IMG/VR virus record: IMGVR_UViG_3300005201_000042
Location: 22,116-86,115 of that record
Length of the DNA stretch: 64,000 nucleotides
Source: a virus
Taxonomy: Duplodnaviria > Caudoviricetes
Strand: one strand, 5' to 3'
Positions 1 to 25,010 of the stretch are shown here, piece after piece. Under the pieces are notes generated by a model. It had not been told where the DNA came from. It saw only the letters and a program-made list of their open reading frames with translations, and ran no database searches. Numbering within the stretch: position 1 is the first letter of the stretch; every line of letters starts with the position of its first letter. The translations under genes were made by a program, and so were the position numbers.

Positions 1-842
1 GTTATTCTCCTAGTACAATTCAAAGGCTTATTAACTTTTACATGAATAACCGGTCTGATGATTCTTCCAGTGATACAAGTCTTTTAAATGAGATGGCTAG
101 TATGCTTGCATCCTCTCGCATGATTAAATCTAGTTCTCCTATGATGCCTGAAACTAACGATCCAAAAATGTTATCTAGGTACCTGTCAATTTTTGACAAG
201 TTTAAATCAGGGGGGTATCCAGATATTAAGTCTGTTGTTAAGGATTTAAATTGGTTTGGAGTTCCTGTTTCAAAGGCTAAAGAACTTGTTAAGGCATGGG
301 GGAATAGTAACTTAACCTCTTCTTTTATTAGATCAGGTGCTGAAGGTGTAGACCAGCAAGCCTACAACAATTACATACAACAACTGGTTGCTACTGGCGT
401 TCCTGAAGATCAGGCTAGGCAAATGGCGGATCAGTTGGTTAATCAAATAAAGCAGAACCAGGCACAGTTTGTACAGAACATTCAACAACCTGCTCAGGGT
501 CAGAATAATTCTTCTCTTGCTGCGTCTTTTAGGAGAGTTATTAAATCAGGTCTCCCTGTCAACTACGACGATGATGAAGAACTTTGTTGTGAGATTTGTG
601 GTTCGCCTGACGGTGTTTGTATTTGTGGTGCAGAGGAATCTGTAGACGATCAGATAGAAGACTTTATTGATGGTTTGGCTCCTGAACTTAAGGGTCAAAT
701 TCAAGCTATTAATAAAGGCTTAATGACTGAGGACGAGCTATTGGAGTGGATACGGGAGCAGTTATCTGTGGGTTATAAAATAGATGAGTCTTTTGCTCCA
801 GTTATTTTAGAACAAGCTGTATGTACACTTGGAGGTATATAA
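1..842 (+). CDS. 5'-truncated modular head-associated protein (helical mini-repeats, Cys-rich knuckle CEICGSPDGVCIC)
   Basis: Frame is open from base 3 through the ATG at 42, so the gene starts upstream of the window. Contains MIKSS, FIRSG and RRVIKSG motifs shared with neighbouring head genes. Confidence 0.7.
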   Translation, partial: YSPSTIQRLINFYMNNRSDDSSSDTSLLNEMASMLASSRMIKSSSPMMPETNDPKMLSRYLSIFDKFKSGGYPDIKSVVKDLNWFGVPVSKAKELVKAWGNSNLTSSFIRSGAEGVDQQAYNNYIQQLVATGVPEDQARQMADQLVNQIKQNQAQFVQNIQQPAQGQNNSSLAASFRRVIKSGLPVNYDDDEELCCEICGSPDGVCICGAEESVDDQIEDFIDGLAPELKGQIQAINKGLMTEDELLEWIREQLSVGYKIDESFAPVILEQAVCTLGGI

Positions 843-3181
843 TGAACGACGATGAAAAGAACGAAGACATCAATGAAGATGAAAACGAAGGTGATTCTGT
901 AGACACAGCTTCTACAGGTGACGATTTCTCTCCTGATGAGGGTGAAGACTCTCTTGACTTTGGTTCTGTCAATGAAGAGGGAGAAGGTGATGTTGACGAG
1001 GGATTTATGGACGAAGTCAACTCTCTTGATGAATTCGGTTCTGACTCTCCTTCTCTCTCCAAAGAAGAGACTATAGATGCTTTACAGGCAATCACAGAAA
1101 TAGCTAATATTATTCTTGCCACTGAGGGTGTCACTGATGGTGAACAGCCTACCTCTGAAGAAGTAAACTTTGTTTTGGACGAGGTTCAGGACTTGGCGGC
1201 TGGCTTTGATAAACCTTCTGATGCTGATGATGGTACAGGTGAGGAAGACTTAAGTGCTTTACCTGCTGAGACTGAGCCTTTAGGTGAGTTTGACGAGGAG
1301 GGTTTTGACGAGGGAGTTGAAGAAGAATTCCCTGAGGAGATAGAAGCCTCTCTTGTTCGTGTCATGGTTGCTGGTAAGCCTGTAAGGTCTAGGTGTACAA
1401 GACCTGTTATCGGGCTAGAAGATATCGGTGGTGTCCCTGCTCTGCTTTGCAGTGGTGTTGGTGCAGTTCCTAACCTTGATGAGGAAGACGAGCCAGCCGC
1501 AGATGCAGTTTTTGAGACCGCAGTTCTTAATAACGGTGATTCTAAAGCTATTCAGTCTAAATTCACGAAGGTTGGTTCTTTCAAGAAATGGGTTATGCAG
1601 AGTAAAGCTCATAAATTGGCTTGGAGAATCGCTTCGTCAAAGTACAGAAGGCTTGTAAAACAGTCTGCTAAAACTCCTAGAGAAAAAGCCGCTGTTTTCT
1701 TCTTGGCTAACAGTTTATACAACAAGGTTATAAAAAGTTCTGGTAATAAACTATTTAAGACCTTCTCAGGTAAATCTCCCAGAGCTATTCGCAAGGTTAG
1801 TCTGGCTTTATCCAATCGTAAACTTGAGAACAAGTCAACAAAGGTTCTCTTCTCCGATTACAACGGGTACAGAAATTATGAAACTTGGAACGCCTCGCTT
1901 TATATAACTAAGGACGAGGCATTAAATAGCAGGGCGAGGCGGTTAGCTCAGTCTGGCGTAAGAGATTACGACAAGTTTATTCAGTCTATGGGTTTGGCTG
2001 GCAAGAAAACGCCTGATGGTGTTGAGTGGTCAAGTTCAAAGATTGATCGTGGGCAGATGGGAGAAGTTCTGTCTAATTTAACAAGTTCAGTTCGTGGAGG
2101 TTCTGGTATGAATAAAAGACCAGTGAGGTCAGCAACTCAAGCAGACAAACAAGGTGATTTAGTAACTGTACAAGACGACACAAAGACAGGTGTTAGTCTT
2201 TCAGGTCAAACTTTATCTGATAGTGCTATTGAGGACTCTAATACTGAAAGAGTGCTAAATGTGGATGGTGGAGATACCTCTCAGATAACTGACGTAAACA
2301 ACACTGGTGATGATGGTGACCTTGTAGCAGACCTTGACGCAGGTACAGAAGTAAGTGCTTCTGAGTATGGGTTTGATAATCAGGAGATGGTTGGTGTTGA
2401 ACTCCCCATTGAAAATGAGAATCAGACCCAGGTATTGGAAATGAAATCCATTGGTTCAGGTGTTTATATACTACAGCAATCTTATATTTCTCCAGGTGCT
2501 GGTAGGCTTTCTTTCACGAAAGGTAAGGAAGCTGCTAAGATTATAAGTAGAAATACCAGACCTGCAGAAATAAAAGCCAATGTAAATCGGGTGCTTTCAC
2601 TTGGTAACACTGGTAAAGGTCTTTTACTTCGGTCTTCTCCTATCTTGGGTATTATTGCTATTGAAGCACCTTATCAGAAAGGTTTAAAGAATTCTGAGTA
2701 TTCAGTTTTCTCCAGGGTCGGTGTAAACCTTATCAATGAAAAAGGTTATTACATCCCTCAATCAAAAGGTGCTAAGAATTTTATCGCATCTGCTTCGTCT
2801 ATGAAAGGCATAAGGAGAGGTTCACAAGTAAAGAACTTATTCTCTGAGGTTGAAGGGGCTTATGTTGGTTATCTCAAAAACAAGGTTTACGGTCTGATAA
2901 AGCAGAACAAAGTGTTAAGAGCCAGTTTGGATAAATCCCTTAAAGCCGCAGCGAGAGATAGGATTTTGGCTTCGCAAGCTCTTAATAAAGAACAGAGGTC
3001 AGCAAGACAGCACGTTGCTTCGGCTATGCAAAGTCTTAATGACATAAAGAAACAAACGGCCGAAGCAGAGGCTCAGAGGGTTATTGCAAGTTCAGCTTCT
3101 GCTGTTAGGGAAAATGCTCTTAATGACAAGGCGAGAACGGAAGCTAATACTGCTCATCTTTTGAAAATGATGAGGTGGTAG
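842..3181 (+). CDS. Candidate prohead core/scaffold protein
   Basis: GGAGG RBS and TAATG overlap at 840-844. Very acidic N-terminal third and predicted coiled-coil C-terminus; many [IVL]-X-S sites; lies upstream of the portal-protease-capsid block. Confidence 0.5.
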   Translation: MNDDEKNEDINEDENEGDSVDTASTGDDFSPDEGEDSLDFGSVNEEGEGDVDEGFMDEVNSLDEFGSDSPSLSKEETIDALQAITEIANIILATEGVTDGEQPTSEEVNFVLDEVQDLAAGFDKPSDADDGTGEEDLSALPAETEPLGEFDEEGFDEGVEEEFPEEIEASLVRVMVAGKPVRSRCTRPVIGLEDIGGVPALLCSGVGAVPNLDEEDEPAADAVFETAVLNNGDSKAIQSKFTKVGSFKKWVMQSKAHKLAWRIASSKYRRLVKQSAKTPREKAAVFFLANSLYNKVIKSSGNKLFKTFSGKSPRAIRKVSLALSNRKLENKSTKVLFSDYNGYRNYETWNASLYITKDEALNSRARRLAQSGVRDYDKFIQSMGLAGKKTPDGVEWSSSKIDRGQMGEVLSNLTSSVRGGSGMNKRPVRSATQADKQGDLVTVQDDTKTGVSLSGQTLSDSAIEDSNTERVLNVDGGDTSQITDVNNTGDDGDLVADLDAGTEVSASEYGFDNQEMVGVELPIENENQTQVLEMKSIGSGVYILQQSYISPGAGRLSFTKGKEAAKIISRNTRPAEIKANVNRVLSLGNTGKGLLLRSSPILGIIAIEAPYQKGLKNSEYSVFSRVGVNLINEKGYYIPQSKGAKNFIASASSMKGIRRGSQVKNLFSEVEGAYVGYLKNKVYGLIKQNKVLRASLDKSLKAAARDRILASQALNKEQRSARQHVASAMQSLNDIKKQTAEAEAQRVIASSASAVRENALNDKARTEANTAHLLKMMRW

Positions 3182-3244: not shown

Positions 3245-4819
3245 ATGGGTACGCAATACGATAATTTCTATTGTCCAGCTGATTCAGATAATTACGGTGA
3301 TGAGCTAGCAAATTTGATGGGTGCCTTTGAGAGAGAGGAAATTTGCGAGGCTGAGTTTGTAGAAATTCTTAAGAAGAATGGGTACTCGCCTTCTCAGATT
3401 GAGGCTAATCTTAAAGAGGTTGAGTTTAATCGTACTGCATACCCTTTAGAGTTAGAATTAAAAGCAAGAGCAAGAGGGGTTAACCAATCAATGAAAAACT
3501 TTGATACATTTTTAAACGCTTGTGAGTCTATTAAATATTTAGACTCTGTTGTTAAGGAAGGGGACACTTACACCCTTATCGGTTGTGGTAAAACTTTACA
3601 GATTAAAGAACGAGTTGACAGCAAAGGCAATCGAGAAGTTCTGCTCTGGAGTAAAACCGAGCCTTCTAACCTTCACAAGGTAGTTGGTAACGATGTAGAG
3701 AAGATTCTCCCTCGCTTGGTTGTACAACACTTCACTGGTATAAAGTCTAGTGTTGAATTCACAGACCACGAAAATCACAAGCATATTTTTGAAGACGTTG
3801 GTTTCTTTCCTGTCTCTGTTCATAGTGATATGGTCAGGTTTGGGGATGCTACTGGCAGAAAATGGGTATGCAGTGCAGGTGGTTCTAACGTTCCCAATAT
3901 TACTCTGGCTTTTTACAAACTCTTGTACGATGGTCGGACGGATATGTCTGCAATGATGTTACCTAAGCTCACTCCTCTGGACGATGTTAAAGTAATCAAG
4001 TCAGGCAAAGGTGGCAAAGATGTAGAGGTTTTTGAACTTCCTAAATTCCCAGAACCTTCTGAGGATTTTATTGTGTCTTCTGTAGAAGACTTTAAGAGAG
4101 CTGTTCCTAATTACGAATCTTTTATGATGTTTCCGCATCAAGGCGATGTGCCTGCTTATGGTCATTCCATTGTTTCTGGTATGGTGGTTTCGTCTGCCGA
4201 TAGACCTTTTATTACATCTGCTGAGAAGAAGATGAGAGGGTTTATTAAGTCTTCGGATGAATTAGATTGGAAGGCTTATCAAACTTTTTCTGATATAGTT
4301 GATGGTCTCATGGCTCAGGGTTATTCTGAAGCTGACGCATTGAAACTTGCAAATGAGTTAAGAGGTAAGGACTCTGCATCATCATCCGCTAAAAGACCGA
4401 TTAAGTCAGTTACTGAGGGAAAAGGCAGTTTTCTCAACCATATGGCAAAACAAAGCGGTAAATCTATTACAGATAAACAAGGTAATCCTTTAGACCCAGA
4501 TAAAATGTATCAGGATAATGGTTCTGGCTATGAAGAGATGGGGCAATCTCTACAGTCAGGTAAGAGACCCATTAAGTCAGGTTTAACTTTTGAAGGTGTA
4601 GATCCTAAAGTCTGTGATGGTTATTTAAACTACCTTCTTGGTGGGGGTGTTCCTGTAGATAAAGCGATGGAGCTAACACAAGATTTTGTTAATCGTATAA
4701 TTGAGGACTGTGATAGGTTTGCGGTTAGTGAATATGTAAATCGTGGTATTGACGAATATAATAAAAGCCTTCCCCAATCACGGAAACAACCCCAAACTTT
4801 TACCCAGCCCACTATGTAA
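3245..4819 (+). CDS. Modular putative internal head protein
   Basis: 524 aa ORF; two KRPIKS motifs and three L-x3-G[YV]-x-E/V-x2-A helical modules. Confidence 0.6.
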   Translation: MGTQYDNFYCPADSDNYGDELANLMGAFEREEICEAEFVEILKKNGYSPSQIEANLKEVEFNRTAYPLELELKARARGVNQSMKNFDTFLNACESIKYLDSVVKEGDTYTLIGCGKTLQIKERVDSKGNREVLLWSKTEPSNLHKVVGNDVEKILPRLVVQHFTGIKSSVEFTDHENHKHIFEDVGFFPVSVHSDMVRFGDATGRKWVCSAGGSNVPNITLAFYKLLYDGRTDMSAMMLPKLTPLDDVKVIKSGKGGKDVEVFELPKFPEPSEDFIVSSVEDFKRAVPNYESFMMFPHQGDVPAYGHSIVSGMVVSSADRPFITSAEKKMRGFIKSSDELDWKAYQTFSDIVDGLMAQGYSEADALKLANELRGKDSASSSAKRPIKSVTEGKGSFLNHMAKQSGKSITDKQGNPLDPDKMYQDNGSGYEEMGQSLQSGKRPIKSGLTFEGVDPKVCDGYLNYLLGGGVPVDKAMELTQDFVNRIIEDCDRFAVSEYVNRGIDEYNKSLPQSRKQPQTFTQPTM

Positions 4820-4890: not shown

Positions 4891-5181
4891 ATGGCGGAAC
4901 AAGCTTTATCGGCAATTAACCAAACTTTGGATACTTGGTTTCTAAGTTACACTAAGAAATTGTTTGCGTACTATGGAGAAGGGACTTATGGGCATTCTGC
5001 AGAGACCAACGCTTGGCAAATATCTATTCCAGATAATAATTTGAAAGTGAGTATTGGCTGGTCTGCTGAGCAAGGGGATTATGTTTACATAGTAATCAAA
5101 GATGGTTCTAGAAAGGATGGAAGGGTTCAGAGTTTAAAGGATCTGAAACTTTTATTTCCAGATGTTTTTGGGGGGTCTTAA
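4891..5181 (+). CDS. Hypothetical protein, probably leaderless
   Basis: ATG at 4891 directly after the -10 box, no SD. Confidence 0.65.
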   Translation: MAEQALSAINQTLDTWFLSYTKKLFAYYGEGTYGHSAETNAWQISIPDNNLKVSIGWSAEQGDYVYIVIKDGSRKDGRVQSLKDLKLLFPDVFGGS

Positions 5182-6289
5182 ATTGATTAATGAACAGCAC
5201 TTGAGAAAAGAGATCCATAAATTTACGTCTTCTGTACTTTCTCAAATGTCCGAAGAGCAATTAAATAAACTTAGTAGAGACCTTCAAGAAGATTCTGATA
5301 TGCTTACGTCTTCTACTCAGTTTGTAGATGATTCTGCTAGTAACAATGGCGTTCCTTCTTATTTCATAACAAGTAGTGGGCGTATAGTAGACGATTCATA
5401 CGAAGGCGGTTTATGGGTTTCTCCTCAAGGCAAGGCTTATGAGGTTACAGGGGATCATTCGGAATATATTTTAGAGTATCCCTCTTTATTTGGAATAGAC
5501 GTTTCTGGTTTTGAATCAGACGATACCTTTGGCTTAGATGATTCTGATAGAGATGTTTTATATGAACAAGCTTATTCCAAAGGCTGGGCTAGGGTTCGCA
5601 TTGTTGACGGAGATATATTTGTAGATGTCATCCGTTCAATTAATACAGATAGGTTTCTTTCAAAGGTAGTTCAGTGTATTCTTGATTATGGCGTTCCTTA
5701 TGACTCAGCTATTCATGTTGAAGTGTTAGAGGACTCTGGTCAATATTCTAATTCAAACGAGTCTTTATCTTCTCTGCTCACAAGTCGTTACTCTGCCAAG
5801 GCTGGTCTTTTTAATGTCCAGGCGAAATGGATACAGGGTTTGCTTACGAGGGAAGAAGCTATAGCGGAGTTGGTAAAGACGGGCAAGTCCAGGGAAATAG
5901 CTAATAAGATACTGGACTCTTGGGGTACGAGGTTTTCGAGTTATACACCCTTGCATTCTGGCACGGGTATTGCTAATCTTATAATTAGCTCACCAGACAA
6001 AGATTATGAAGTAGCTAAAAGTGGTACACGTTACTGGTTAGACGGGGTTTGTAAGCGTATACAATCTAATCTTGGGAAGAAGGGTATTAAGGCTACGATA
6101 AGTCCAATAACGAACTTAACCTGGAGGGTTGTCGTGGGTCAGAAGGTTGTCTTTCAAGTTATTTACTCATCCTCTAATAATGTGGACTTCTTTGATTATA
6201 CTTATTTTAATGCCTCTGGGAAATCCTTTTCAGGTCAGGTAAGACGTATGGAAGATTTAAAGGGTTTAATTTCTAAGGTAGGGGTTTGA
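5162..6289 (+). CDS. Modular protein: GGxWxSPxG domain plus C-terminal SPDKDY domain
   Basis: Both domains have paralogues in the 10355 and/or 21399 ORFs; exact start uncertain (TTG near 5183 possible). Confidence 0.7.
   Translation: MFLGGLKLINEQHLRKEIHKFTSSVLSQMSEEQLNKLSRDLQEDSDMLTSSTQFVDDSASNNGVPSYFITSSGRIVDDSYEGGLWVSPQGKAYEVTGDHSEYILEYPSLFGIDVSGFESDDTFGLDDSDRDVLYEQAYSKGWARVRIVDGDIFVDVIRSINTDRFLSKVVQCILDYGVPYDSAIHVEVLEDSGQYSNSNESLSSLLTSRYSAKAGLFNVQAKWIQGLLTREEAIAELVKTGKSREIANKILDSWGTRFSSYTPLHSGTGIANLIISSPDKDYEVAKSGTRYWLDGVCKRIQSNLGKKGIKATISPITNLTWRVVVGQKVVFQVIYSSSNNVDFFDYTYFNASGKSFSGQVRRMEDLKGLISKVGV
5941..5979 (+). promoter_or_regulatory. Class I promoter embedded in coding sequence
   Basis: TTATACACCC-TTGCAT-N17-TAATCT, read in-frame as YTPLHSGTGIANL(IISS). 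Confidence 0.65.
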
Positions 6290-6884: not shown

Positions 6885-6941
6885 TATTCCTCCCTTGTCT
6901 CTTCTCTGCTGGTATGATACCTTGATGGTAAGAGGTATTGT

Positions 6942-7926: not shown

Positions 7927-9750
7927 ATGAGTGTTGTTCATTCTTCAGTTAAGAGACCTATTAAGTCTCTTGTCCAGCCTTCTGCTCGACATGGTTCTAA
8001 TTCTCGTTCAGATAAAGAAATGTGGGACTCTTATTGGAACCATGAGCCTTTTCTTTCTGACGCAGGTAAGTTTAACTTACCTGCCTATATAGACAATTTC
8101 AGAAGGGGTCTTGCAGATGAGGAATCTCTTAGGGCTTTTCTTTTGTCTCAGGGTTATGAGGAGTCTGTGGTGGAGTTTGTCTTAAATAAAGAGGTGGAGA
8201 GAAAAAAACAAATAGACGAATACAACTCCACCACAGGTAATAGTATGTCTTATTCTTCACTTAAGAGACCTGTTAAGTCTTCTTCCTCTAACCTTAAATC
8301 CCTAGTAAAATCAGCAAAAGAGTTTCAGTTCAAATTATTTGACACAGGGGCTTTCCAACTTGACTTATCGCAAGACAACAACGGCTCTCCTTTATGCTCA
8401 AGCATAAAAGGTTCAATTGACGCAGGTGCGGTTCTCTCAATTGCCAGCAGGGATGGTTACACGTTCCACGACCTCTCTCAAGGGGTTAATTTGTCTGGTT
8501 CTCCTATCCTTGATGAATACAAGTCCTTACTAACGTCCACAGCTTCTCTTACGCCTGTGGAATACAAACCTATCAAACGCCAACTTGAAACTTGGGTACT
8601 TTCTGGCAAAGAGTTAGACAAAGAGCTTGCTTCGTGGGGTTTAAACAACCCAGGGCAGGTTTTCCAGTCGATGAAGGTGTTAGGGATTGATCTTTCGGGT
8701 AAGGATACTGTGCCTGTTCGGTCTTCTGTTCAACAAGGACAACGCTTGGGTTTTAAGAAGCCCGTTGCTTCAACAGGCAATGGGCAGTTAGTCAAATCCA
8801 GTAACGACATTTATACAAGATACTTAAGTCTTCTTAATGAGGGGATCTCTGACAGACATGCAAGAAATCAATTAGTGGAAGAGTTTGGTCAATCTGCTGA
8901 GGGTGATTCTTATGCCTCTTTTATTGACGAAGTAGAGGCTCAAGATGGGGGTCAATTTTTAGGTTCAAGTGCTGCGCCTGACTCTGACGTAGGCATAGCT
9001 TTGCAGTATGTTTTTGATAATGACATTCCTCACGATTTTGAACGGGTTTATGAGGCTCTGGTTATGTCTGGCTTATGGGAAGGTGAGGATGAGGATTCTG
9101 TATTTGACCTTGCCTTCTTGGTTTGTAACGAGTTAGGTGTTCCTCTTGCATCCTCTGTTAAGAGGTCTATTAAGTCTTCTGCTGGGGGCTTTGGTACAGA
9201 TGATTATTACAAACTTAAAACTGTTTATATGCATAATCTTCTTCGCCAGGGTTATTCTGAAGAAGACGCGGATAGGATGGCTGATGAATATGTAGTAAAC
9301 TTCCGAGGTGATTTAGAAACAGAAGGTGAGGGTGCAATTCAGAGAAACTGGAACAAGTCTAACCCCACGTCTCCCATGCAGTTTGATGTAAACTCTTCTA
9401 ACAAACGCATCCCCATTCAGCAAGACTTTAAGGGCATGTTGGAGATGATAAAAAACTGGCTTAAGAGGGTGCATGAGGGTCTAATGGAGCAAAGCGTTTT
9501 TTACTCCAACCTTATGCGACTTTTGAGAGGTAATGGTTACCCTGGGAGCAAGGCGAATACTATTTATGAGGAGTTAATGGCTGGTAAACCTGTAGAGGCT
9601 GTTATGGCCAGTCTTCGGCGTGTGGGGAGTTCTGCTTCTGTGGGAGATTATTGGGGAGATGAGGAGAGGCATCGCAGATTTTCTTCTGTTTCAAGGTCTA
9701 AGGCTGTAGATAAGCAACCCACGGGTTTTCAGAAGCCCACTGCTCGGTAG
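7927..9750 (+). CDS. Modular putative internal head polyprotein
   Basis: Starts MSVVHSSVKRPIKS; further KRPVKSS and KRSIKSS; four L-x3-G[YI]-x-E-like helical modules. Confidence 0.65.
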   Translation: MSVVHSSVKRPIKSLVQPSARHGSNSRSDKEMWDSYWNHEPFLSDAGKFNLPAYIDNFRRGLADEESLRAFLLSQGYEESVVEFVLNKEVERKKQIDEYNSTTGNSMSYSSLKRPVKSSSSNLKSLVKSAKEFQFKLFDTGAFQLDLSQDNNGSPLCSSIKGSIDAGAVLSIASRDGYTFHDLSQGVNLSGSPILDEYKSLLTSTASLTPVEYKPIKRQLETWVLSGKELDKELASWGLNNPGQVFQSMKVLGIDLSGKDTVPVRSSVQQGQRLGFKKPVASTGNGQLVKSSNDIYTRYLSLLNEGISDRHARNQLVEEFGQSAEGDSYASFIDEVEAQDGGQFLGSSAAPDSDVGIALQYVFDNDIPHDFERVYEALVMSGLWEGEDEDSVFDLAFLVCNELGVPLASSVKRSIKSSAGGFGTDDYYKLKTVYMHNLLRQGYSEEDADRMADEYVVNFRGDLETEGEGAIQRNWNKSNPTSPMQFDVNSSNKRIPIQQDFKGMLEMIKNWLKRVHEGLMEQSVFYSNLMRLLRGNGYPGSKANTIYEELMAGKPVEAVMASLRRVGSSASVGDYWGDEERHRRFSSVSRSKAVDKQPTGFQKPTAR

Positions 9751-10352: not shown

Positions 10353-10354
10353 CA

Positions 10355-13003: not shown

Positions 13004-15043
13004 ATGCCGATGTTCACGTCTTTAAAAAGTAGGCTACCGCAGATAGGTGAGAAATTACAAAAGTTTATTTTAGGTGCAGATGACGAAGAGTTAATTTCAA
13101 GGGTAAAAAACTACACTAATCACGCTAGTTATGGAGCAGACATCTGGGGTGATTCTTCCTCTATGCAGACTCTTGGCTTGCTTCGTGAAGTCCCTGCAAT
13201 GCTTCGAGATCCTATTATTCAATCTTGTATCGGTATTATTATGGAGACTTCTTTTCAGATGAATGATAAGAATAAAGTTCTCTGGCCTGTGTCTTCTTAT
13301 GATTCAATCAAGAAGGAGTTAGAAAACTTCCATGAAAAAGTAAACATGAGCCAGCACGCAGTTATTCTGGGGTTTAATCTTTTACCGTGGGGTAATTTGC
13401 CTTACAAGCACCACTTTGATAAAGATGGTAAATTCTCAGACTTTACTCCTATTCCAGACTTCACAAAGGTTGTTCCTGTTGTTGTTTCTGGTAAGACCTT
13501 AGGGTTTATGGTTGGTAATCAGTTTTGTTTCCCTTACGAGTTTTCTTATGCTCAGTTAGAGTTCTATAAAAATCTTGGGGGGATTTACAAAAGTAACTTT
13601 GTACAGTTCTCAGGGAATATGGACGGTAAAGATGTATTCGGAGAGGACTTTCAGAATGAGTTTGTTGTTGCACCTTCTTATTTGTCCACTGCGGCAAGAC
13701 CGTGGAAGAATATAAATATAATTGAAGACGCTCTACTTTTAAATCGAATGGATCAATCTAATTACTACAGAATATTCTCAGTTCTGGTCGGAGGTTCTGT
13801 TACTTCTAAGTCAGCTATAAGGACTCTTAACTACTATCGTAACTTGTTTAAGAAGGTTCGCAGGGTGTCTTATAATTCTTCTGGTATGGCTTCATCTGGT
13901 GTAGGGAATGAGTTTGAGATAATACTTCCTAAAACTGAAAAACAGGGTTTAGAGGTTACTGACGTGGGAGGAACCGTGGATATTAAGGCTCTTAAAGACC
14001 TTGATGTTCAGTACAACAAGCTTTTTGCGGCTCTTAAGGTTCAACCCTCTCAGATTGGTTTTGGAGAGGAGCAGACAAACGCTATCGGGGATACTAATGG
14101 ACAGTCTTACGACCGGCGTTTAGCAAGAACCTGTAAGATGCTGGTTTACTCCGTTCAAAAGACAATCAAGAATTTTGATTATCTATACCTTCGCTCTCGA
14201 GGTTATGATGTTTCTTTAGATGACTGGTCTTATGGTTCTGTTTCTCTTTCTGTGTTGGAGGATCAAGATAGGGGTACAACTCTAAAAACTGCAATTGAAA
14301 ATTTAAAGAGTTTTGCTGAGGTTCTCACTTCTTTACAACTTCAAGAATACAATAAGTCTTATCTGGTTGAATCTGTCTTAGGTTCTGCTCTGTCTTCTGT
14401 TGGAGTGGATGTGAAAGAGCTATTAAAAGTTCCAGAGGGTCAGGAAGCACCTATGGAAGCAGAAGGTGGAGCTGAGGGTGCACCTCCCCTGTTAGCATCT
14501 AGGCAACCCAACCAAATAAATTATAAGAACGCCTATCTAACAAGTATGTTTGATACTATGGAGACAGTTAAGCTAGCTTCTCCAGAGATTATACAGTCCA
14601 TGCGAGCTTCTATGTTGGGAAAGGCAGATTCAAATGTTAAAATGATTTCATCTTCAAAAGGTTCTAATATTTTGCCAGCTGCTATTTTGGATGATACTAC
14701 TGCTTATACCTATCCTGAAGAAGCCCAGGTTGATTTAACTGGTCAAGTTGGTTTTATTCAAGGTGAGACTTCACAGATTGTTAGTGACTTGAATAAAGCT
14801 AAATCAAAGAAGTGTGAGGATATGGCTACACTTGATTTTAATACGTCTATTTTAGTTCCAAGTGATTTAAAGATGACTCTTGGAGATTACAACACTGCTG
14901 GTATCCGTGCTTTGGGTACAGGTTACATTAACTCAAGGGGTGAGGTAATTCTCACGAACAAGGCTGATGTGGCTACTTTCTTATCGATGAAGCGGTCTGG
15001 TTTACTGTCTTGTTTGGTTTCGCGGCTTTATCAGGTTCCGTAG
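13004..15043 (+). CDS. Portal protein, T4 gp20-like
   Basis: IIEDALLLNR...YRIFSVLVG and FEIILP...GLEVTDVGG...LDVQYNKLFAALKVQPSQ match gp20-family blocks. Confidence 0.85.
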   Translation: MPMFTSLKSRLPQIGEKLQKFILGADDEELISRVKNYTNHASYGADIWGDSSSMQTLGLLREVPAMLRDPIIQSCIGIIMETSFQMNDKNKVLWPVSSYDSIKKELENFHEKVNMSQHAVILGFNLLPWGNLPYKHHFDKDGKFSDFTPIPDFTKVVPVVVSGKTLGFMVGNQFCFPYEFSYAQLEFYKNLGGIYKSNFVQFSGNMDGKDVFGEDFQNEFVVAPSYLSTAARPWKNINIIEDALLLNRMDQSNYYRIFSVLVGGSVTSKSAIRTLNYYRNLFKKVRRVSYNSSGMASSGVGNEFEIILPKTEKQGLEVTDVGGTVDIKALKDLDVQYNKLFAALKVQPSQIGFGEEQTNAIGDTNGQSYDRRLARTCKMLVYSVQKTIKNFDYLYLRSRGYDVSLDDWSYGSVSLSVLEDQDRGTTLKTAIENLKSFAEVLTSLQLQEYNKSYLVESVLGSALSSVGVDVKELLKVPEGQEAPMEAEGGAEGAPPLLASRQPNQINYKNAYLTSMFDTMETVKLASPEIIQSMRASMLGKADSNVKMISSSKGSNILPAAILDDTTAYTYPEEAQVDLTGQVGFIQGETSQIVSDLNKAKSKKCEDMATLDFNTSILVPSDLKMTLGDYNTAGIRALGTGYINSRGEVILTNKADVATFLSMKRSGLLSCLVSRLYQVP

Positions 15044-15660: not shown

Positions 15661-16716
15661 ATGGGACAATGGATTTTCGGTAAGGCATCCCCTGTTTCTT
15701 TGTCTGATAAAGGCAAGCAGTTATTAAAATCTTCAGGTTGTATTGTAAGTGATTATGTTGGTGAGTCTGGTTCTTCCAGCAATGGTCTTCTCTGTACCTT
15801 TAAATCTGTTCCTATTGCCTTCTACGACGTTCCTACGCTCAATCAGATGGTATTTAGCCGTAAGCTCTGGGAATGTCTGTTAGAGAACCAATATCTCAAA
15901 CAATCAATGGAGAACGGTTCACACTATGGAGAGGCTAAACACGCCGACCGTGATGAGGTTTATCTTGATGAAATAGCTTGCAGGGTGAACAAGTTCTGGT
16001 TCGGTGATAACAATATTCTTTTGGGTGATGTAGACATTCCAGACACTCCTAAAGGACGAATTGTTCATTCCCTTGCTAAAATCAGCAGGGTTGGTATATC
16101 TTCCAGGGGTTTTGGCGAGTTAAGGAACAGGGACGATGGTTTAAAGGACGTTATTCCTGACCAGTATATGCACGTCTGCTGGGACATGGTTGCTTTCCCT
16201 GCTGTGCCTGACGCTCACATGACTTTAATTACTGGGGATTCACCTTATGACGAGACAATCAATATGTCCACGGAGCTTCGTAACTTGATAAGGGAGGCTT
16301 ATCAAAGGAATCCTAAAGACAAGGCTTTACAAAAGTTGGTTTCCACTGCAAAGATACCCACTGGTAAGAAGTACGATTTTTCACTTAAAAATGATCTAGA
16401 CAGAGCAATAATCTCTCATGAGTTAAAGAGGAGAAATAGTTATCCACCCTTGCATTCTAGAGGCATAAGTCGTATAATGAGTTCTAGAAGAACAATTTCT
16501 GCAGCAGTGGCTTATATTTCACAGGCAGTAGGTTCTTTTTATACTGGGGCTTCTTGGAGATTGTCTGTTGAAAATCTACCTGAGGCTACTTTGGATAATA
16601 AGGGTTCTGTTCAGTCTCTTAGTATTTACTATAAGGTAACTAATAAAGAGAGTAGAAAAACTTTTAATATCCGTGCAGTGGTTTCTTCAAATGGTTTTCA
16701 GTTAAGGAGGGGTTAG
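15661..16716 (+). CDS. Prohead core protease, T4 gp21-like, with C-terminal extension
   Basis: GEAKH (catalytic His), TPKGRI, GISSRGFG (catalytic Ser), WDMVAFPA. Confidence 0.88.
   Translation: MGQWIFGKASPVSLSDKGKQLLKSSGCIVSDYVGESGSSSNGLLCTFKSVPIAFYDVPTLNQMVFSRKLWECLLENQYLKQSMENGSHYGEAKHADRDEVYLDEIACRVNKFWFGDNNILLGDVDIPDTPKGRIVHSLAKISRVGISSRGFGELRNRDDGLKDVIPDQYMHVCWDMVAFPAVPDAHMTLITGDSPYDETINMSTELRNLIREAYQRNPKDKALQKLVSTAKIPTGKKYDFSLKNDLDRAIISHELKRRNSYPPLHSRGISRIMSSRRTISAAVAYISQAVGSFYTGASWRLSVENLPEATLDNKGSVQSLSIYYKVTNKESRKTFNIRAVVSSNGFQLRRG
16440..16478 (+). promoter_or_regulatory. Class I promoter embedded in the protease gene
   Basis: TTATCCACCC-TTGCAT-N17-TATAAT, read as YPPLHSRGISRIM(SS). 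Confidence 0.7.
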
Positions 16717-17662: not shown

Positions 17663-19129
17663 ATGATTGAATCAATGGATGAACAGGGTGTACGTTCTGC
17701 TCTGGCTAGTCGGTTTCAGAATGTAGCTGCTTCGGCAGGTGGGGGTAAACCCAGCATATATCAAGATCTAATTGCAAGTTCTGCCGCAGCTTACCAGAGG
17801 AAGTGGAAAAAAGAACTTCCCCAGTCTGTTAAAGCGGTTCTAATGCAGTCTCTTGATAAGATGACCCAGATATTCCAGAACCGTGATCGGGTTTCGAGAG
17901 AAACAATCATGTCTGCGGTGTCAGATATAGCTAAAGTAGACAATCCTATTACTCTGGCTTACAACCTGATGTCAATTCTTATTCCTAACTTTGCTTACAC
18001 TGAGGTTATCGGAATTCAGCCCATTCCTACAAAGGAATCTCCTGTTTTCTATCCGAGGATTGTGGCGAATGAGAATAGGAATAATGTGACAAAAGGCTCT
18101 GTTCTGCTTGGGTCAACAAACTGGACAGCAAGTAACTCGTTCACAACTAACCAGGTAGCTTCTCCTGTGACTGTTGGTAATACTACGGCTCTTTCTTTTA
18201 CTGCACCTGAAGGTAATATTACGCCGGGTAGCCTTGCGATTACATTGAAGCTTGTAGGCTTGGGTACTTACGTGGTGTTTGATGATGGTAAAGGGGTTTT
18301 AGTTCCTATTTCTGGTGTCACTGCCTCTACGGCTGGTACAGTAAACTACGCTACTGGTGGGGTTTCTTTAACCTTAGCCGCAGCGGCTCCAGCTAACTCA
18401 TCGGCATCCGCTCGCTATCGTTATGAGTTTGCAGATACTACAAAACCTGCACAGGCTAAGCTTGAATGGGTAACTGAGAAAGTACGTGCAGAACCCTACA
18501 GAATTCGCACAATTTACGAACTTGATGATTTCTTCCAGGTCAAGCAAGTTCTGAGCAACTACGATATTGACTCGGTTCTTTCAAGTTCGGTGGCAGGTTA
18601 TATAAACAAAGAAATCAGCGGGAATGTCTTTGATGACATTCTTCTGAAGACTGATGCTGACTTTGCGTGGAATTCGTCTAATCCGAGTGGTGTTGCTTGG
18701 GCGTTGCACAGGTTGTCTTTAATGCAGACATTTGTAAGGGCTGGCAATGGTATTCGTCAGAACATTGCACGTGCTGGAGGTAATATTGCCATCTGCGGTA
18801 ATGAGTGGATGAACTTCATTGAGACTTTGGGTGACGATCTTTGGAAACCAGAGAAGTTTACTGAAGAACCAATAGGGCCTTACGTTGCAGGTACTTTGGC
18901 TGGTAAATTCAAGATTCTTAAGAATCAGGATTACCCTGATACCAAAGCGGCAATGGTGTACAAAAGGGATGACGTGGATGCTTCAATTGTTGGTGGTGTG
19001 TTCATCGGTTTGTATGCTACTAACCCAGTGGCAATGGACGACCTTAAGGTTATTCAGGGCATGGGCACTCAGTTTGGGTGGCTCAAGACCTTTGATAACT
19101 CAATAGTGTCTCTTACGTTACAGCAGTAG
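17663..19129 (+). CDS. Major capsid protein, T4 gp23-like (HK97 fold)
   Basis: LIPNFAYTEVIGIQPI (cf. IA.D.CGVQPM), AKLEWVTEKVRAEPYRI, INKEISGNVFDDI; GAGG RBS; followed by a terminator. Confidence 0.9.
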   Translation: MIESMDEQGVRSALASRFQNVAASAGGGKPSIYQDLIASSAAAYQRKWKKELPQSVKAVLMQSLDKMTQIFQNRDRVSRETIMSAVSDIAKVDNPITLAYNLMSILIPNFAYTEVIGIQPIPTKESPVFYPRIVANENRNNVTKGSVLLGSTNWTASNSFTTNQVASPVTVGNTTALSFTAPEGNITPGSLAITLKLVGLGTYVVFDDGKGVLVPISGVTASTAGTVNYATGGVSLTLAAAAPANSSASARYRYEFADTTKPAQAKLEWVTEKVRAEPYRIRTIYELDDFFQVKQVLSNYDIDSVLSSSVAGYINKEISGNVFDDILLKTDADFAWNSSNPSGVAWALHRLSLMQTFVRAGNGIRQNIARAGGNIAICGNEWMNFIETLGDDLWKPEKFTEEPIGPYVAGTLAGKFKILKNQDYPDTKAAMVYKRDDVDASIVGGVFIGLYATNPVAMDDLKVIQGMGTQFGWLKTFDNSIVSLTLQQ

Positions 19130-20778: not shown

Positions 20779-21355
20779 ATGAAAAAAGAAAAAGATGAGC
20801 AATTGAAAGAAGCTATTATTGACAATCTGCTTTACATTGTGGCTCAAGCTCTTAAGCAAGTAGATCGGTTGAGATCTGGGGATTTAGACGGAACTCTTTT
20901 GAACGACGTTAGGTCATCAAGAGAAAGCATTGAAAAATTGGCTTATGTAAGAGCCAGAGAGCTTATCTGAAAAATGTTTAAATCTTAATTAAAGGAGGGA
21001 TGAAATGAGTACAAATGGGTTTTCCGAAAAAGAATTCTTAGAGGGTAAGGTTTTACGTTATCTTATATTTCTTAAAGATGACCTGATGGAGAGAGGTTAC
21101 ACGGAAGAAGGTGCTGAGAAAGCTATTGCAGGTGCTTTACCTTACTGTATATTCCAACATGCACAATTAAACAAAATAGGTTAGCTTATGAAAAGTAAGT
21201 ACTCTGTTGAGAAGAGAACCGCTGACGAACGCTTTACTCTTACAATTCCAGGTTTGGACTATGCTGTTGGGGATGTTTACTTTGTTTTAAAAGAGCATGA
21301 GCAAGTTGTCGCTTGGGCACATACAGAGGATGGTGCTTGGGCTTGTAGACTCTAA
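20779..21355 (+). CDS. Accessory cassette of three small ORFs (20779-20970, 21004-21183, 21188-21355)
   Basis: Strong RBS (AAAGGAG) at the first two; bounded by a class I promoter and a terminator. The last two ORFs were read manually. Confidence 0.65.
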
Positions 21356-21393
21356 CTTAACGCCATCCTTCGGGATGGCTTTCGTTTTATATA
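21352..21393 (+). terminator. UUCG-loop terminator fused to a class III promoter (repeat of 26240-26282)
   Basis: CTAACTTAACGCCATCC-TTCG-GGATGGCTTT..GTTTTATATA; near-identical second copy. Confidence 0.85.
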
Positions 21394-21398
21394 CTAAT

Positions 21399-24300
21399 AT
21401 GAATAATTTTGTCTCTGTGTCTTCAAAGCCTTTAGTTATACGAATATCATCCTCTGCTAATCCAGGCTATATTTCAAAAGCTGTAACTACTGTTAAGAGG
21501 TTTCTAGACAACGTTGGTGCTTGGTATAAGTATCACAGAAGCAATAAATCGAATAGTGAGTATTTTCTGGTTGAACGTCCGAATGACAGGATGTCTCCGG
21601 AGGTTGACGTTCGTGTTTCAGATCACAATCTCCCACACGTATATGATCAACCAGACCTAGATATTGACCCCAGTTCTCCAGGTCGTATTGGTTCTTACTC
21701 TGTTCCAGAGGCTCTAGACTTGCTTGAGGGCTTCTTTGACGGGGAATACGTAAATATAGTTGAGGGTGAGCCTATTGTGTCTTCTAAAACTTATACACCC
21801 TTGTATTATGGCAATCGCAAGGGTATTATAAAGAGTAGTAGACGGGAGGCAACGCTTGAACGGTTTAACAAGATTGAGCAAACTCAACCAGATGTATGGC
21901 GTATATTACATACAAAGGCATCCGATCCTAGTATGCAGGGTTATAATACCCTTTTGGGTGTGGGTTCTTGGGACTATCACCAAGATTCAACTTTAGCTGG
22001 TTTGATTAGGGATTCTTGGAAAAAAGGTTATACTACTTTCTTCTTGGAAGACAACGAGGTTGTTCATGGTTTTTTAGCTTTTATGGTTAGTGGTGATACA
22101 ATTTATAATGTTAAGACTTTTTCAGTGGTTAGGGACGTTAAAAACGGAGAGGATTTAAAGAGGTTTGTGAGGGATTACGTGCCAAACTATAATTTAGTTT
22201 GGGAGGCACGTGAGGACAACAAAGCATGTAAGCGTTACGAGGATATAACGAGGTTGTATGGTGGTACTGTTACACCGAGTACAGAAAATCCTAACCATCT
22301 CATTTTTAAGATTAGAAAGGGGTCTGTGCCGAATTCCACACGGGTTTCTTTACATTCTCATAGCAGGTTGGAGCAAAGCTATAAAAATAGGTTTTCCTCA
22401 TCCTCACCCACGGTTTGCAGTGAGTTCGGAGCTTCTTTTAAGCAGTTTTCACTGGAGAATAGTTCTTCTGCAATCAAGAATAGACGATTTACAAGAAACA
22501 TTAAAATCTTAAGTACTTTTAACGAACAAGCCTATTCAGATTGGTTTTTAGAAGAATCCTCTAGGTTTCTTGGTAAATCTGAGGATGAAGTTCTTTCTCT
22601 CCCAAATTACAAAGATAAGCTAGACACTTTTTTGGATGAGGCACGTGAATGGCATTCTATGTCTCAAGAGGAAAGGGAAAGGTGGTATTTGTCAGGTGCT
22701 GGTAGAACTATTTGTACGTCTTCTGTTGTGCGTTTTTTATGGGCGGATAAGTCTTATCCATCCTTGTATTCTAAACTTTCTCAAGGTAATATTAACAAGT
22801 CTATGGGTCGTAAGTTTATTTTTAATTCCAAAGAGATGCTCTCAGGCGGTGTTTGGATAAGCCCTTCTGGAGATATGTTTGGTGTTCCTTTGACTCATAT
22901 AAAAGCTGTAATAGAAGACCCTGCTAAGTTTGGTTTATCTGTTGAACAGTTAAAGGCTATTTACAATAAGCATAACGAGGGTATTGGATCAGAGGGGGAC
23001 GCAAGAGACGAGGTTATTTCTTTGCTCATTTTTAATGGCTGGGTAAGAATTAGGTTTTACCCAGGCGAGTATTTTCATGTAGAGTTAAATAAATTAAGTC
23101 AAAAATATAAAAATGTTTTATTCTCTTGGGCTTCTAAAGTGATCAGTAAGTCTCCAGAGAAGAAAGCTCTTTCTGTCATTATTTGCGAGAGACTAGGAAA
23201 TTTTGAATATTCTTTTAAATTAGAAGATTTGCAGGTTTCTTTTGTTTCTTCTGGTAAAACTGGAGATTTAGCTTATTGGATAAGTCCTTCGGGAGAGCTT
23301 ATAAGTACGCATGGTAGTCATACAAGTACAGTAGTGGAAACTCCTGAGGTTTTTGGTTTTACAGAGGAAGAAGTTAATACTTTATTTTCGGTCGGTGAGG
23401 AGGAAGCTGTTCTTAAGTGTTTAATAGGTAACGGTTGGATAAGGCTTCGTTATCAGGCTGGTTGTTATTTTGTCTCTGTGTTGTCTTTGTCTCCAGAGAC
23501 CCAGCAAAGGTTGCAGAACTGGGCTTTGCATGAGGGGAACGAAGATAAGGATACTACAGTTATTATTGAGATGTTGGTTTCATTTAACGTTATAAAGGTT
23601 ACTTTACGAGATGTTTCTAGAGGTGTTTTTTCACATGATGCTTCCCTGCCTATCCATTCATCGGTTGATTATGATGAGTGGAGTCTTATTCCTAGTAGTC
23701 TTAGAACAATAGGAAACGCACAACTAATCGAGTCTGCTACTATTCAAGACCTATTAGACGAGAACGATAAGAACCCAGAGTTTACTCACAGGGCAGAGCA
23801 TTTAGACGCTACGAAGGCTCAGGGTGATTCAGAAATTACTCGCTGTTACGCTTCCACAGTCGAGTTAAGAACCAAGTCTGAGCATTTTAAGGAGAATAAT
23901 ACCTATTATCGGCAATGGGTACTTTTTAAGGATTTTGTTTCAATAGCACGGGACAAGAAGATCAAACTTGAGGACGCTGTGGATTATGCTATTAACTTTT
24001 GTGATATAACTATTAGATGTTCCTGCCCTGATTTTTTGTATAGAGGGTACTCTTACATGGGTGATCAGCTTGGTTATCTTTATGGTCTCCCAAGAGAGAA
24101 GCGGTTTCCTAAAAGAAATAACCCCAATCTTAAGCTTGCGGTTTGTAAGCACTCGGATATAGCATTAGAACATCTCCTTAAAAATAAAGAGAAACTTATA
24201 AAAATGTTTGGTGTATATTACAAGAGGATAAAAGAGACTCCACCTGACACTATGATTGCTGTCCCTGCTAAAGCCGCAGAGGAAAAGAAAGAGGAGTCTA

Positions 24301-25010
24301 TTGAGGACTTCTTAGCTGGTTTTGACGAGGATGGAAATAAAATATCAGAAGAAAAAGCAGACCTTAAAGAAGATGACGGTGTTGAGACTATTTCAGAACA
24401 AGACCCTGACTCTGGTGTTATTAAAATAGACACAAAACTTGCCGAGGGTAATTTACCGCCAGACCAGCAGGTTAAGTACGCAGGCGATGAAGATAAACCT
24501 GTGGACGAAAACACTCTAGAAAATGTGGCTGATTCTATTTCCGATGAGGAAGAAGAGGAATTAGCCACTCAGATTGACGAAGCTTCTCTTTCTGGTTCTC
24601 CTAGGAATGATAATGAGAAGTTCATGCACGAGTGGTCTTTCCAGCGGTTTAAACCTAATACTTATACAGACTTGTATCCTAATAATTATCATGCTAGTCT
24701 TATAACAAGTTCACCAGACAAAGATTATGAACCTGCTAAGTCTTATGTAAGAAACTGGTTGGACAGTATTTGTAAGAGTGTTCAAGCGAACCTAAAAAAG
24801 AAGGGTGTTGTTTCTACAATAAGTCCTGTAACAGGTTTGACTTGGAAAGTAGCAGTAGGTCAGAAGGATGTTCTTAAAATAGACCTTTCCTTCCCTTCTG
24901 GTAATTACTGCTTTAGTTATACATATTTAGATAGAACAAGTAAATCATTTTCAGGAAAGACTATGAAAATGGATGCTTTAATACAGCTTGTTCCAAAGGT
25001 TGGGGTTTGA
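21399..25010 (+). CDS. Large multidomain (polyvalent-like) protein: RVSDH domain, GNAT-like domain, two GGxWxSPxG domains, SWIM-type Zn finger, acidic region, SPDKDY domain
   Basis: Start moved from 21297 to 21399 because the upstream part spans a terminator. CSCPDF...CKH is SWIM-like; domains are separated by [IVL]-X-S-S. Confidence 0.75.
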   Translation: MNNFVSVSSKPLVIRISSSANPGYISKAVTTVKRFLDNVGAWYKYHRSNKSNSEYFLVERPNDRMSPEVDVRVSDHNLPHVYDQPDLDIDPSSPGRIGSYSVPEALDLLEGFFDGEYVNIVEGEPIVSSKTYTPLYYGNRKGIIKSSRREATLERFNKIEQTQPDVWRILHTKASDPSMQGYNTLLGVGSWDYHQDSTLAGLIRDSWKKGYTTFFLEDNEVVHGFLAFMVSGDTIYNVKTFSVVRDVKNGEDLKRFVRDYVPNYNLVWEAREDNKACKRYEDITRLYGGTVTPSTENPNHLIFKIRKGSVPNSTRVSLHSHSRLEQSYKNRFSSSSPTVCSEFGASFKQFSLENSSSAIKNRRFTRNIKILSTFNEQAYSDWFLEESSRFLGKSEDEVLSLPNYKDKLDTFLDEAREWHSMSQEERERWYLSGAGRTICTSSVVRFLWADKSYPSLYSKLSQGNINKSMGRKFIFNSKEMLSGGVWISPSGDMFGVPLTHIKAVIEDPAKFGLSVEQLKAIYNKHNEGIGSEGDARDEVISLLIFNGWVRIRFYPGEYFHVELNKLSQKYKNVLFSWASKVISKSPEKKALSVIICERLGNFEYSFKLEDLQVSFVSSGKTGDLAYWISPSGELISTHGSHTSTVVETPEVFGFTEEEVNTLFSVGEEEAVLKCLIGNGWIRLRYQAGCYFVSVLSLSPETQQRLQNWALHEGNEDKDTTVIIEMLVSFNVIKVTLRDVSRGVFSHDASLPIHSSVDYDEWSLIPSSLRTIGNAQLIESATIQDLLDENDKNPEFTHRAEHLDATKAQGDSEITRCYASTVELRTKSEHFKENNTYYRQWVLFKDFVSIARDKKIKLEDAVDYAINFCDITIRCSCPDFLYRGYSYMGDQLGYLYGLPREKRFPKRNNPNLKLAVCKHSDIALEHLLKNKEKLIKMFGVYYKRIKETPPDTMIAVPAKAAEEKKEESIEDFLAGFDEDGNKISEEKADLKEDDGVETISEQDPDSGVIKIDTKLAEGNLPPDQQVKYAGDEDKPVDENTLENVADSISDEEEEELATQIDEASLSGSPRNDNEKFMHEWSFQRFKPNTYTDLYPNNYHASLITSSPDKDYEPAKSYVRNWLDSICKSVQANLKKKGVVSTISPVTGLTWKVAVGQKDVLKIDLSFPSGNYCFSYTYLDRTSKSFSGKTMKMDALIQLVPKVGV
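21791..21829 (+). promoter_or_regulatory. Class I promoter embedded in coding sequence
   Basis: TTATACACCC-TTGTAT-N17-TATTAT, read as YTPLYYGNRKGII(KSS). Confidence 0.65.
24662..24700 (+). promoter_or_regulatory. Class I promoter embedded in coding sequence
   Basis: TTATACAGAC-TTGTAT-N17-TAGTCT, read as YTDLYPNNYHASL(ITSS). Confidence 0.6.

Follow-up and report, generated by a model that had tools for sequence, protein, structure and literature searches.

We use sequence comparison to study the head genes on a 64,000-nucleotide stretch of phage DNA (hereafter the window), which spans bases 22116-86115 of the 86-kb IMG/VR phage record IMGVR_UViG_3300005201_000042, estimated to be 60% complete. 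All long open reading frames (ORFs) of the window lie on the + strand. The basic arrangement is outlined in Table 1: a gene for a prohead protease of the T4 gp21 family is flanked by genes for a T4-type portal and a gp23-type capsid protein, large modular proteins are encoded around these three, and genes for sheath, tube, tape-measure, tail, helicase and polymerase follow downstream of the head module. A short protein motif ending in serine, [IVL]-x-S-[SAG], recurs in several of the modular proteins, in places extended to a basic tag of the type KRP[IV]KS, and is considered here as a candidate cleavage site of the protease. Throughout, ↓ marks a predicted or known cleaved bond, P1 is the residue before that bond, P2, P3 and so on are the residues preceding P1, and P1' is the residue after the bond.

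Table 1. Features of the head module in window coordinates; motif counts are observed versus expected numbers of [IVL]-x-S-[SAG].
Feature	Position	Strand	Basis or remark
C-terminal part of 808-residue motif-rich protein, start upstream of window	3..842	+	5 vs 1.5 motifs
Tag RRVIKS (RRVIKS↓G)	531-548	+	in ORF 3-842
786-residue DUF7249 protein, motif-rich	821..3181	+	Pfam PF23907; 10 vs 4.0 motifs
Tag KRPVRS	2114-2131	+	in ORF 821-3181
524-residue motif-rich protein	3245..4819	+	11 vs 1.8 motifs
Tag KRPIKS	4391-4408	+	in ORF 3245-4819
Tag KRPIKS	4562-4579	+	in ORF 3245-4819
375-residue two-module protein	5162..6289	+	self-BLAST of phage proteins
607-residue modular protein	7927..9750	+	13 vs 3.9 motifs
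Tag KRPIKS	start 7951	+	N-terminal leader of ORF 7927-9750
Tag KRPVKS	8263-8280	+	in ORF 7927-9750
Tag KRSIKS	9160-9177	+	in ORF 7927-9750
644-residue protein, C-terminal coiled coil	10355..12289	+	weak coiled-coil match below cut-off; 8 vs 4.5 motifs
Portal, T4 gp20-like	13004..15043	+	Pfam PF07230
Prohead protease, T4 gp21 family, 351 residues	15661..16716	+	Pfam PF03420, PHROG 207
Predicted self-activation site L21-L22-K23-S24↓S25	15721..15735	+	alignment with T4 gp21 L-L-I-E9↓T
Predicted C-terminal release site I272-M-S274↓S275, between protease and C-terminal domains	16474..16485	+	relatives' linkers
Major capsid protein, gp23-like, 488 residues	17663..19129	+	Pfam PF07068; T4 gp23 structures matched by profile
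Predicted capsid maturation site I82-M83-S84↓A85	17906..17917	+	clade conservation, outgroup columns
1237-residue multi-module protein	21297..25010	+	self-BLAST of phage proteins

Serine-ending motifs in the window and in related phages

The original prediction, made from the letters of this DNA, listed seven KRP[IV]KS-type tags written with differing synonymous codons, and all seven are found where it placed them. Between them the tags use CCA, CCG, CCC and CCT for Pro, AAA and AAG for Lys, and TCA and TCT for Ser, and this variation at third positions upholds the accompanying claim that selection acts on the protein. The strict form of the tag, [KR][KR]P[IV][KRT]S, is found at 5 places, where 2000 composition-preserving shuffles give 0.022 on average and never more than 1. 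For the shorter motif [IVL]-x-S-[SAG] we count 78 occurrences in the head region against 39.9 expected from per-protein shuffles (z score 6.2), and, once the 1793-codon ORF upstream of the window is set aside, 76 against 70.4 in the tail and replication ORFs, where there is no enrichment (z 0.7); the proposed comparison of head with tail and replication proteins thus comes out in favour of the head region. The signal comes mainly from four ORFs (3-842, 821-3181, 3245-4819 and 7927-9750), and the portal has 3 motifs where 3.2 are expected, so the statement that head-region proteins are punctuated by the motif holds for a few motif-rich ORFs and is not confirmed as a general rule. In the rich proteins the residues around S-[SAG] are also biased, with Ile enriched 4.3-fold at P3 and Arg 3.5-3.8-fold at P5/P6.

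One can ask whether such a pattern simply follows from a high Ser content, or from a signal at the DNA level such as in-frame promoters or repeats. The proteins are indeed Ser-rich (8-13%), but shuffles that keep the composition of each protein still leave z scores of 6-25, and the excess of Ile at P3 is 4-7-fold across the two analyses in which we measured it (the rich proteins of the window and the logo sites described below). At the DNA level, each of the four Pro codons appears among the tags, other third positions differ as well, and the relatives keep the protein motif. A promoter signal at the tags was considered and rejected: 0/7 tag hexamers overlap a sigma-70-like match, the nearest such match ends 22 nucleotides before the tag at 531, and the region as a whole shows no excess of these matches (17 against 20.5 in shuffles). 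On the strength of the shuffles, the codon variation, the conservation of the protein motif and the lack of promoter overlap at the tags, we treat the composition and DNA-level explanations as excluded and give them next to no weight.

Now we consider how far the motif extends beyond this genome. A tblastn search against 50,697 phage records did not find a cultured close relative; no match to the capsid protein exceeds 26% identity, and the matches at this level are to Maribacter Colly and Molly, Listeria LIS04, Bacillus HSE3 and SP-15. A search of 5.8 billion proteins returned at least 120 related capsid proteins with 43-81% identity, and the clade capsid set that we analysed comprises 135 full-length members, all metagenomic. 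Scanning IMG/VR with the single protein gave no relatives; scanning it with a profile gave 10 loci, and 12 related loci were analysed (loci are identified by L numbers where they must be told apart). Some of the IMG/VR relatives bear sample numbers that we take to be those of rumen metagenomes. At 12/12 related loci, 2-5 ORFs near the capsid gene carry the motif at z scores of 4-9. Relatives with 46-75% capsid-protein identity retain the motif with K/R and I/V swaps; the tag recurs at the related loci with K/R, I/V and K/T swaps and is often doubled, as in I-E-S↓S-R-R-P-V-K-S↓G. One relative, L005/L020 (IMG/VR 3300028591_000006), is a complete genome (142,789 bp, flanked by direct terminal repeats) and shows the same code, including one protein (L005 18067-19878) with nine tandem R-K-P-[VI]-x-S↓[AS] repeats. 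The logo of 363 sites has R/K at P6, K/R at P5, P at P4, I ahead of V and L at P3, K at P2, S at P1 and S/A/G at P1' in 56%, a P1' preference that is partly built in because the ORFs were selected for richness in [IVLM]-x-S-[SAG].

A scan free of this selection counts [ILV]-x-P1 for all 20 possible P1 residues and compares each count with shuffles. For the head genes of T4, our control, the scan picks out Glu (z 5.2), matching the known I/L-x-E, and it also picks out Glu in the Glu-type phages Colly_1 (z 3.2) and LIS04 (z 3.7). Applied to all unselected ORFs of each related locus, the same scan always picks out Ser, with z scores from 3.7 to 10.7 for single loci and 25 for the pooled counts (462 against 160), and Glu is not enriched at P1 in these loci.

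Sites in the capsid protein and the protease

The predicted N-terminal propeptide of the capsid protein is 84 residues long and ends at the I-M-S↓A site that had been proposed just before the conserved core. Across 30 aligned clade members residue 83 varies, and I82, S84 and A85 do not; in the full set, 134/135 capsid proteins have I-x-S↓A, and P2 is occupied by any of 12 residues. At these columns Colly_1 reads I-M-E↓A, LIS04 L-L-E↓T and T4 gp24 L-R-E↓S, the last of which is a known gp21 site whose cleavage removes ten residues (PMC9958956). Among outgroup capsid proteins, a hydrophobic-x-E lies no more than one column from the clade site in 63/67; when 1.8 billion representatives are searched with a profile, this outgroup tier is sharply set off from the clade. 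The alignment with gp23 relatives that had been suggested as a check therefore finds IMS where relatives have x-x-E. Three further propeptide sites of the original prediction (IES, LAS and IAS) are not conserved in relatives. Neither the capsid propeptide nor the protease leader has a conserved hydrophobic-x-E in the clade.

The protease matches PF03420 with 38.7 bits (curated cut-off 27; E-value 9.7e-10) and the head maturation protease family PHROG 207 with an E-value of 6e-21. Its catalytic residues H94 (nucleotides 15940-15942) and S147 (16099-16101) align with H85 and S140 in the T4 gp21 numbering (10.64898/2026.03.04.709575), and neither residue varies in the 14 enzymes aligned or in some 30 more members of the clade. 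In a Foldseek search with a low-confidence AlphaFold model of the protease, the top three matches are chains of T4 gp21 structure 5JBL (probability 1.00, E-value 2.5e-3, template modelling score 0.47 by target), with no E-value below 1e-3; weak matches to the human cytomegalovirus and herpes simplex virus proteases rank behind them, and a Pfam scan of the protease gives no S21 match. Beyond residue ~275 the protein carries an extra C-terminal domain.

T4 gp21 begins with nine residues that obstruct its active site until self-cleavage takes them off (PMC9958956), and the sequence L-I-E9 at that place fits the gp21 site logo (PMC9026906). The leader of the clade enzymes has Ser where T4 has this Glu: L-L-K-S24↓S25 aligns with T4 L-L-I-E9↓T and with the hydrophobic-x-E of seven other Glu-type proteases, L-L-K-S↓S varies hardly at all, and S24 is present in all of 24 clade proteases. 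A second predicted site, I-M-S↓S, separates the protease domain from the C-terminal one, and the equivalent linker in relatives reads V-K-S↓G (L002), I-A-S↓S (L019), or L-A-S↓S plus I-K-S↓S (L020). Both of these protease sites, at residues 21-25 and 272-275, are as the original prediction described them.

Three alignment columns distinguish the clade enzymes from the Glu-type enzymes. At the T4 R55 column all of the Glu-type enzymes have Arg (8/8), whereas the window's protease has M63 (15847-15849) and, in about 40 clade proteases, the residue is Met in ~38, Gln in L004 and L025 and Tyr in L018. At the T4 P86 column, beside the catalytic His, Pro is found in 8/8 Glu-type enzymes and Ala (here A95), Lys, Thr, Arg or Gln in the clade. 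At the T4 A175 column the Glu-type enzymes have Ala, Asn or Gly, and the clade has Val (here V182, 16204-16206) or Cys. M63, A95 and V182 are candidate changes in the S1 pocket, and loss of the Arg is what one would expect if a P1 carboxylate is no longer bound.

These observations also bear on whether some other protease, from the host or a second enzyme of the phage, might recognise the motif. We find nothing that specifically favours this idea. The S77 enzyme bears the motif at the very place where T4 gp21 cleaves itself and changes in step with its substrates, family scans of the head-module proteins reveal no second protease there, and the GC content of the clade ranges over 39-55%, from which we conclude that its hosts probably differ. 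Recognition by another enzyme is accordingly very improbable.

Modular proteins as putative substrates

Several of the motif-rich proteins are modular, and the motif is found at a number of module borders. In the 808-residue protein whose end is ORF 3-842 (9 motifs against 4.2 expected over its whole length) this end also bears the paired site L-A-S↓S-R-M-I-K-S↓S. The linker of ORF 821-3181 runs L-T-S↓S...KRPVRS↓ATQAD, and in L002 and L003 both of its ends are kept while the middle is variable. Homologues of ORF 3245-4819 are themselves motif-rich, with 22 motifs against 4.2 in L002 (1753-3897) and 9 against 1.4 in L003 (3424-4275). ORF 7927-9750 begins with the leader M-S-V-V-H-S↓S-V-K-R-P-I-K-S↓L (7927-7968), which resembles the leaders MKVQRPIKS↓A and MAKRLIKS↓A of relatives; its homologues are domain-shuffled, and their starts or ends fall at motif sites.

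Further module borders involve an uncharacterised domain of ~80-150 residues that begins G-G-x-W-[IV]-S-P-x-G (hereafter W-x-SP-x-G), of which there are five copies in four proteins. The four copies inside the window each directly follow a hydrophobic-x-S: F-I-T-S↓S (5363-5380) in ORF 5162-6289, F-I-T-S↓G-G-G (11216-11233) in ORF 10355-12289, and M-L-S↓G-G (22836-22853) and F-V-S-S↓G (23241-23258) in ORF 21297-25010. The fifth copy is in the ORF at genome positions 6855-8669. A further domain is common to the C-terminal ends of two of these proteins, where it follows L-I-I-S↓S-PDKDY (5978-6007) in ORF 5162-6289 and L-I-T-S↓S-PDKDY (24699-24728) in ORF 21297-25010. ORF 10355-12289, with its C-terminal coiled coil, is a possible scaffold-like component.

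A comparison within the genome indicates where such a module starts. A free-standing gene for 140 residues (genome 8951-9373) begins M-A-R-I-K-D, and its two fused paralogues read W-I-F-S↓M-A-R-M-Q-D and P-I-L-S↓M-A-R-G-L. Because the free-standing gene starts exactly where the fused paralogues follow hydrophobic-x-S, we infer that the module begins at P1'. The P-I-L-S↓M-A-R border opens an ORF of 1793 codons upstream of the window (genome 9374-14755) with 28 motifs against 9.3 expected, and since this ORF is motif-rich the putative substrate set reaches beyond the window.

We also observe a recurrent element at C-terminal ends. Two proteins of the window end in G-F-Q-K-P-T-A-R (9718-9750) and T-F-T-Q-P-T-M (4796-4819), proteins of close relatives end in G-F-[QT]-[KQ]-P-[TAS]-x, and residues 275-282 of ORF 7927-9750 hold an internal L-G-F-K-K-P-V-A-S↓T that resembles this element plus a cut site. 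Ends of the G-F-Q-K-P-T-A-R type, perhaps akin to the tag, may serve for docking at the C-terminus.

What, then, is the tag for? It was originally proposed that S-S-x-KRP[IV]KS acts as a capsid-targeting tag and releases many small proteins. The tag is kept across the clade, is an N-terminal leader in some proteins and marks module borders, and it sits mostly in internal linkers. The capsid-targeting part of the proposal draws on analogy with the capsid-targeting sequence (CTS) of T4 and on the few N-terminal leaders, and for both targeting and release the evidence is only suggestive. A different possibility is that the motif has nothing to do with proteolysis and serves in binding, in targeting, as a flexible linker (docking to scaffold, portal or DNA) or in phosphorylation of basic-x-x-Ser, with the protease retaining its Glu specificity or cutting elsewhere. 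Most tags are basic and lie in linkers, conserved domains contain some of the motif copies, and the G-F-Q-K-P-T-A-R-related element ends two proteins with no following residue to cut, all of which would suit such a role. On the other side, the motif has the site architecture of the protease superfamily, with a hydrophobic P3, a free P2 and a small P1', and the free-standing paralogue begins at P1'. Since Ser replaces Glu at known T4 sites, no Glu site is conserved in the capsid propeptide and the conserved Arg of the enzyme is lost, we consider a non-proteolytic motif improbable.

Elsewhere in the window, an 828-residue ORF (58531-61017) appears by eye to be an ATP-dependent DNA ligase split by an intein: a Cys comes right after K-M-D-G, a LAGLIDADG-like block is present, and the insert ends in H-N before Cys-Arg.

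A proposed serine code and its relation to known proteases

Taken together, we think it likely that the motif is the code of the phage's own gp21-type (MEROPS S77) protease, which would cut after Ser and not after Glu. The most likely recognition sequence is hydrophobic (I over V and L)-x-S↓(S/A/G, sometimes others), as opposed to the (L/I)-x-E↓ of the Glu-type enzymes. By homology the protease belongs to S77, and its novelty would lie in its specificity and in the extended basic-Pro tag. The original prediction of a P1 switch from Glu to Ser gains from the enrichment, the position of IMS, the protease leader, the loss of Arg and the start of the free-standing paralogue, and it is strained by a sister lineage, P0140/L017 and L025, in which the capsid site of an otherwise Ser-type genome reads I-K-E↓A.

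This site is one of several observations that count against a Ser-specific enzyme. The outgroup Glu coincides with the clade Ser exactly in one alignment and is one column off in another. In the head region of the window, [ILV]-x-E (z 3.4) and [ILV]-x-Q-[SAG] (z 4.2) are mildly enriched as well. Several invariant copies of the motif (I-G-S-G-V-Y, L-R-S-S-x-L-G, I-A-S) sit in segments that are conserved and probably folded, and for that reason may be structural and need be neither accessible nor cut. The AlphaFold model of the protease is weak, with a mean predicted local distance difference test score of 58 and values of 33-46 for residues 150-200, near the active site, and it is co-variation that points to a role of R55/M63 in the S1 pocket.

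The serious alternative, itself a variant of the Ser reading, is a relaxed specificity in which Ser is the commonest of several small or polar P1 residues that the protease takes, Glu and Gln included and Asn or Ala perhaps as well. The sister lineage supports this alternative. L025 is a metagenome contig (Ga0307375_10003547, 55% GC) with its capsid gene at 9316-10800 and a protease fusion at 6860-9256. Its P1 scan gives Ser (z 4.9) with Glu not enriched, its tags read E-K-K-P-V-K-S and K-S-P-I-K-S, and its protease has the leader R-K-L-I-K-S↓N and Gln at column 63. The I-K-E↓A site implies either that Glu is still accepted or that this capsid protein is processed differently, and because L025 is Ser-type except at the capsid site it makes a straightforward tie of column 63 to P1 harder to uphold. 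From this lineage, specificity may have been relaxed rather than strictly switched, and L025 may be an evolutionary intermediate. We looked for a transitional lineage: the P0140 contig lacks the protease, IMG/VR gave no relative, and one scan of metagenomes yielded L025.

Gln may be a secondary P1 residue, given that capsid residues 37-40 (window 17771-17782) read L-I-A-S↓S here and L-I-A-Q↓S in most relatives, and that the head region has an excess of [ILV]-x-Q-[SAG] as noted above; in L025 the same pattern reaches z 3.5. The pooled relatives add weaker signals for Asn, Arg and Asp. Against relaxation, the pooled z score of Ser far exceeds that of any other residue (at most 5.8) and Glu shows no enrichment, the Asn signal partly reflects V-N-S↓R-K-P-type sites shifted by one residue, and Ser is kept at P1 in the capsid site (134/135) and in the protease leader (24/24). 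We therefore judge relaxed specificity to be unlikely, though it deserves to be kept in mind.

If the protease indeed cuts after Ser, maturation could proceed as follows. The zymogen, the capsid protein with its propeptide, the portal and several of the large modular proteins would co-assemble in the prohead. The protease would activate itself at L-L-K-S24↓S25 and free its own C-terminal domain at I-M-S274↓S275, the capsid protein would be trimmed at I-M-S84↓A85, and the modular proteins would be cut at exposed sites. The preferred site would be [KR][KR]-P-[IV]-[KT]-S, which occurs in N-terminal leaders as well as linkers and frequently takes the double form hydrophobic-x-S↓[SA]-x-[KR][KR]P[IV]KS↓. 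The changed P1 would accompany the replacements R55 to Met63, P86 to Ala95 and Ala175 to Val182. Cleavage itself, the exact bond and the part played by the three protease residues are deduced from sequence. We put forward more tentatively, and with some doubt, the broader scenario that the clade recoded dozens of sites together with the S1-pocket residues, that L025 is a dual-specificity intermediate, and that the tag, of 6-11 residues, is a portable load-and-release signal for the shuffling of cargo domains.

Were the Ser code true, it would mean that the specificity of an ancient protease fold of phages and herpesviruses can change, with enzyme and substrates traceable as they change together, and R55, P86 and A175 of T4 gp21 would be the residues to probe. 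It would narrow the gap to the small P1 of herpesvirus assemblin. It would also allow the mature forms of capsid and cargo proteins to be predicted by rule throughout a large uncultured phage group, and the protease with its tag would be a candidate orthogonal pair with which to load phage heads with proteins.

All T4-type and giant-phage prohead proteases studied to date, among them those of T4, phiKZ, 201phi2-1 and SPN3US, cut after Glu (PMC9026906, PMC10052503, PMC5694885), and T4 fails to process sites even when P1 is Asp (PMC9026906). Among the papers that our literature search covered, there is no report of a T4-type prohead protease that is Ser-specific or otherwise cuts after a residue other than Glu. 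The closest known system is T4 gp21 (S77, PF03420), which cuts at (L/I)-x-E↓ in gp23, gp24, gp22, gp21 and the internal proteins. The window's enzyme is a homologue with the same catalytic His and Ser and the same neighbours, a T4-type portal and a gp23-type capsid protein; the sites share a hydrophobic P3, a free P2 and a small P1', lie at the homologous capsid N-terminus and protease leader, and are many in head-internal proteins. It differs from T4 gp21 in the predicted Ser at P1, in Met for R55 and in the lost Pro after the catalytic His, as well as in the extended basic-Pro tag at P6-P4 and in substrates that are large, shuffled, multi-module proteins and not small internal ones. As with phiKZ gp175, 201phi2-1 and SPN3US gp245, whose sites are (S/A/G)-x-E↓, many head or ejection proteins would be processed and propeptide sites would be redundant, which here is predicted; unlike these giant-phage proteases, which cut after Glu with a small P3, the window's enzyme would have a hydrophobic P3 and Ser at P1.

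The comparison can be taken further, to herpesviruses. The release and maturation sites of herpesvirus assemblin (MEROPS S21) follow the consensus (V/L/I)-x-A↓S. Assemblin belongs to the same protease fold superfamily as gp21 (PMC5694885), and the sites proposed here resemble its own in the hydrophobic P3, the free P2, the small uncharged P1 and the Ser-rich P1', along with a predicted self-release at the C-terminal side. The two differ in that P1 is Ser and not Ala and in that Pfam membership is S77 and not S21, so the resemblance is one of site logic. Finally, the short N-terminal leaders that end in a predicted protease site in ORF 7927-9750 and in some proteins of related phages recall the CTS of T4 internal proteins IPI-III and Alt, with the differences that most tags here are internal and that the tag, unlike the T4 CTS, is basic.

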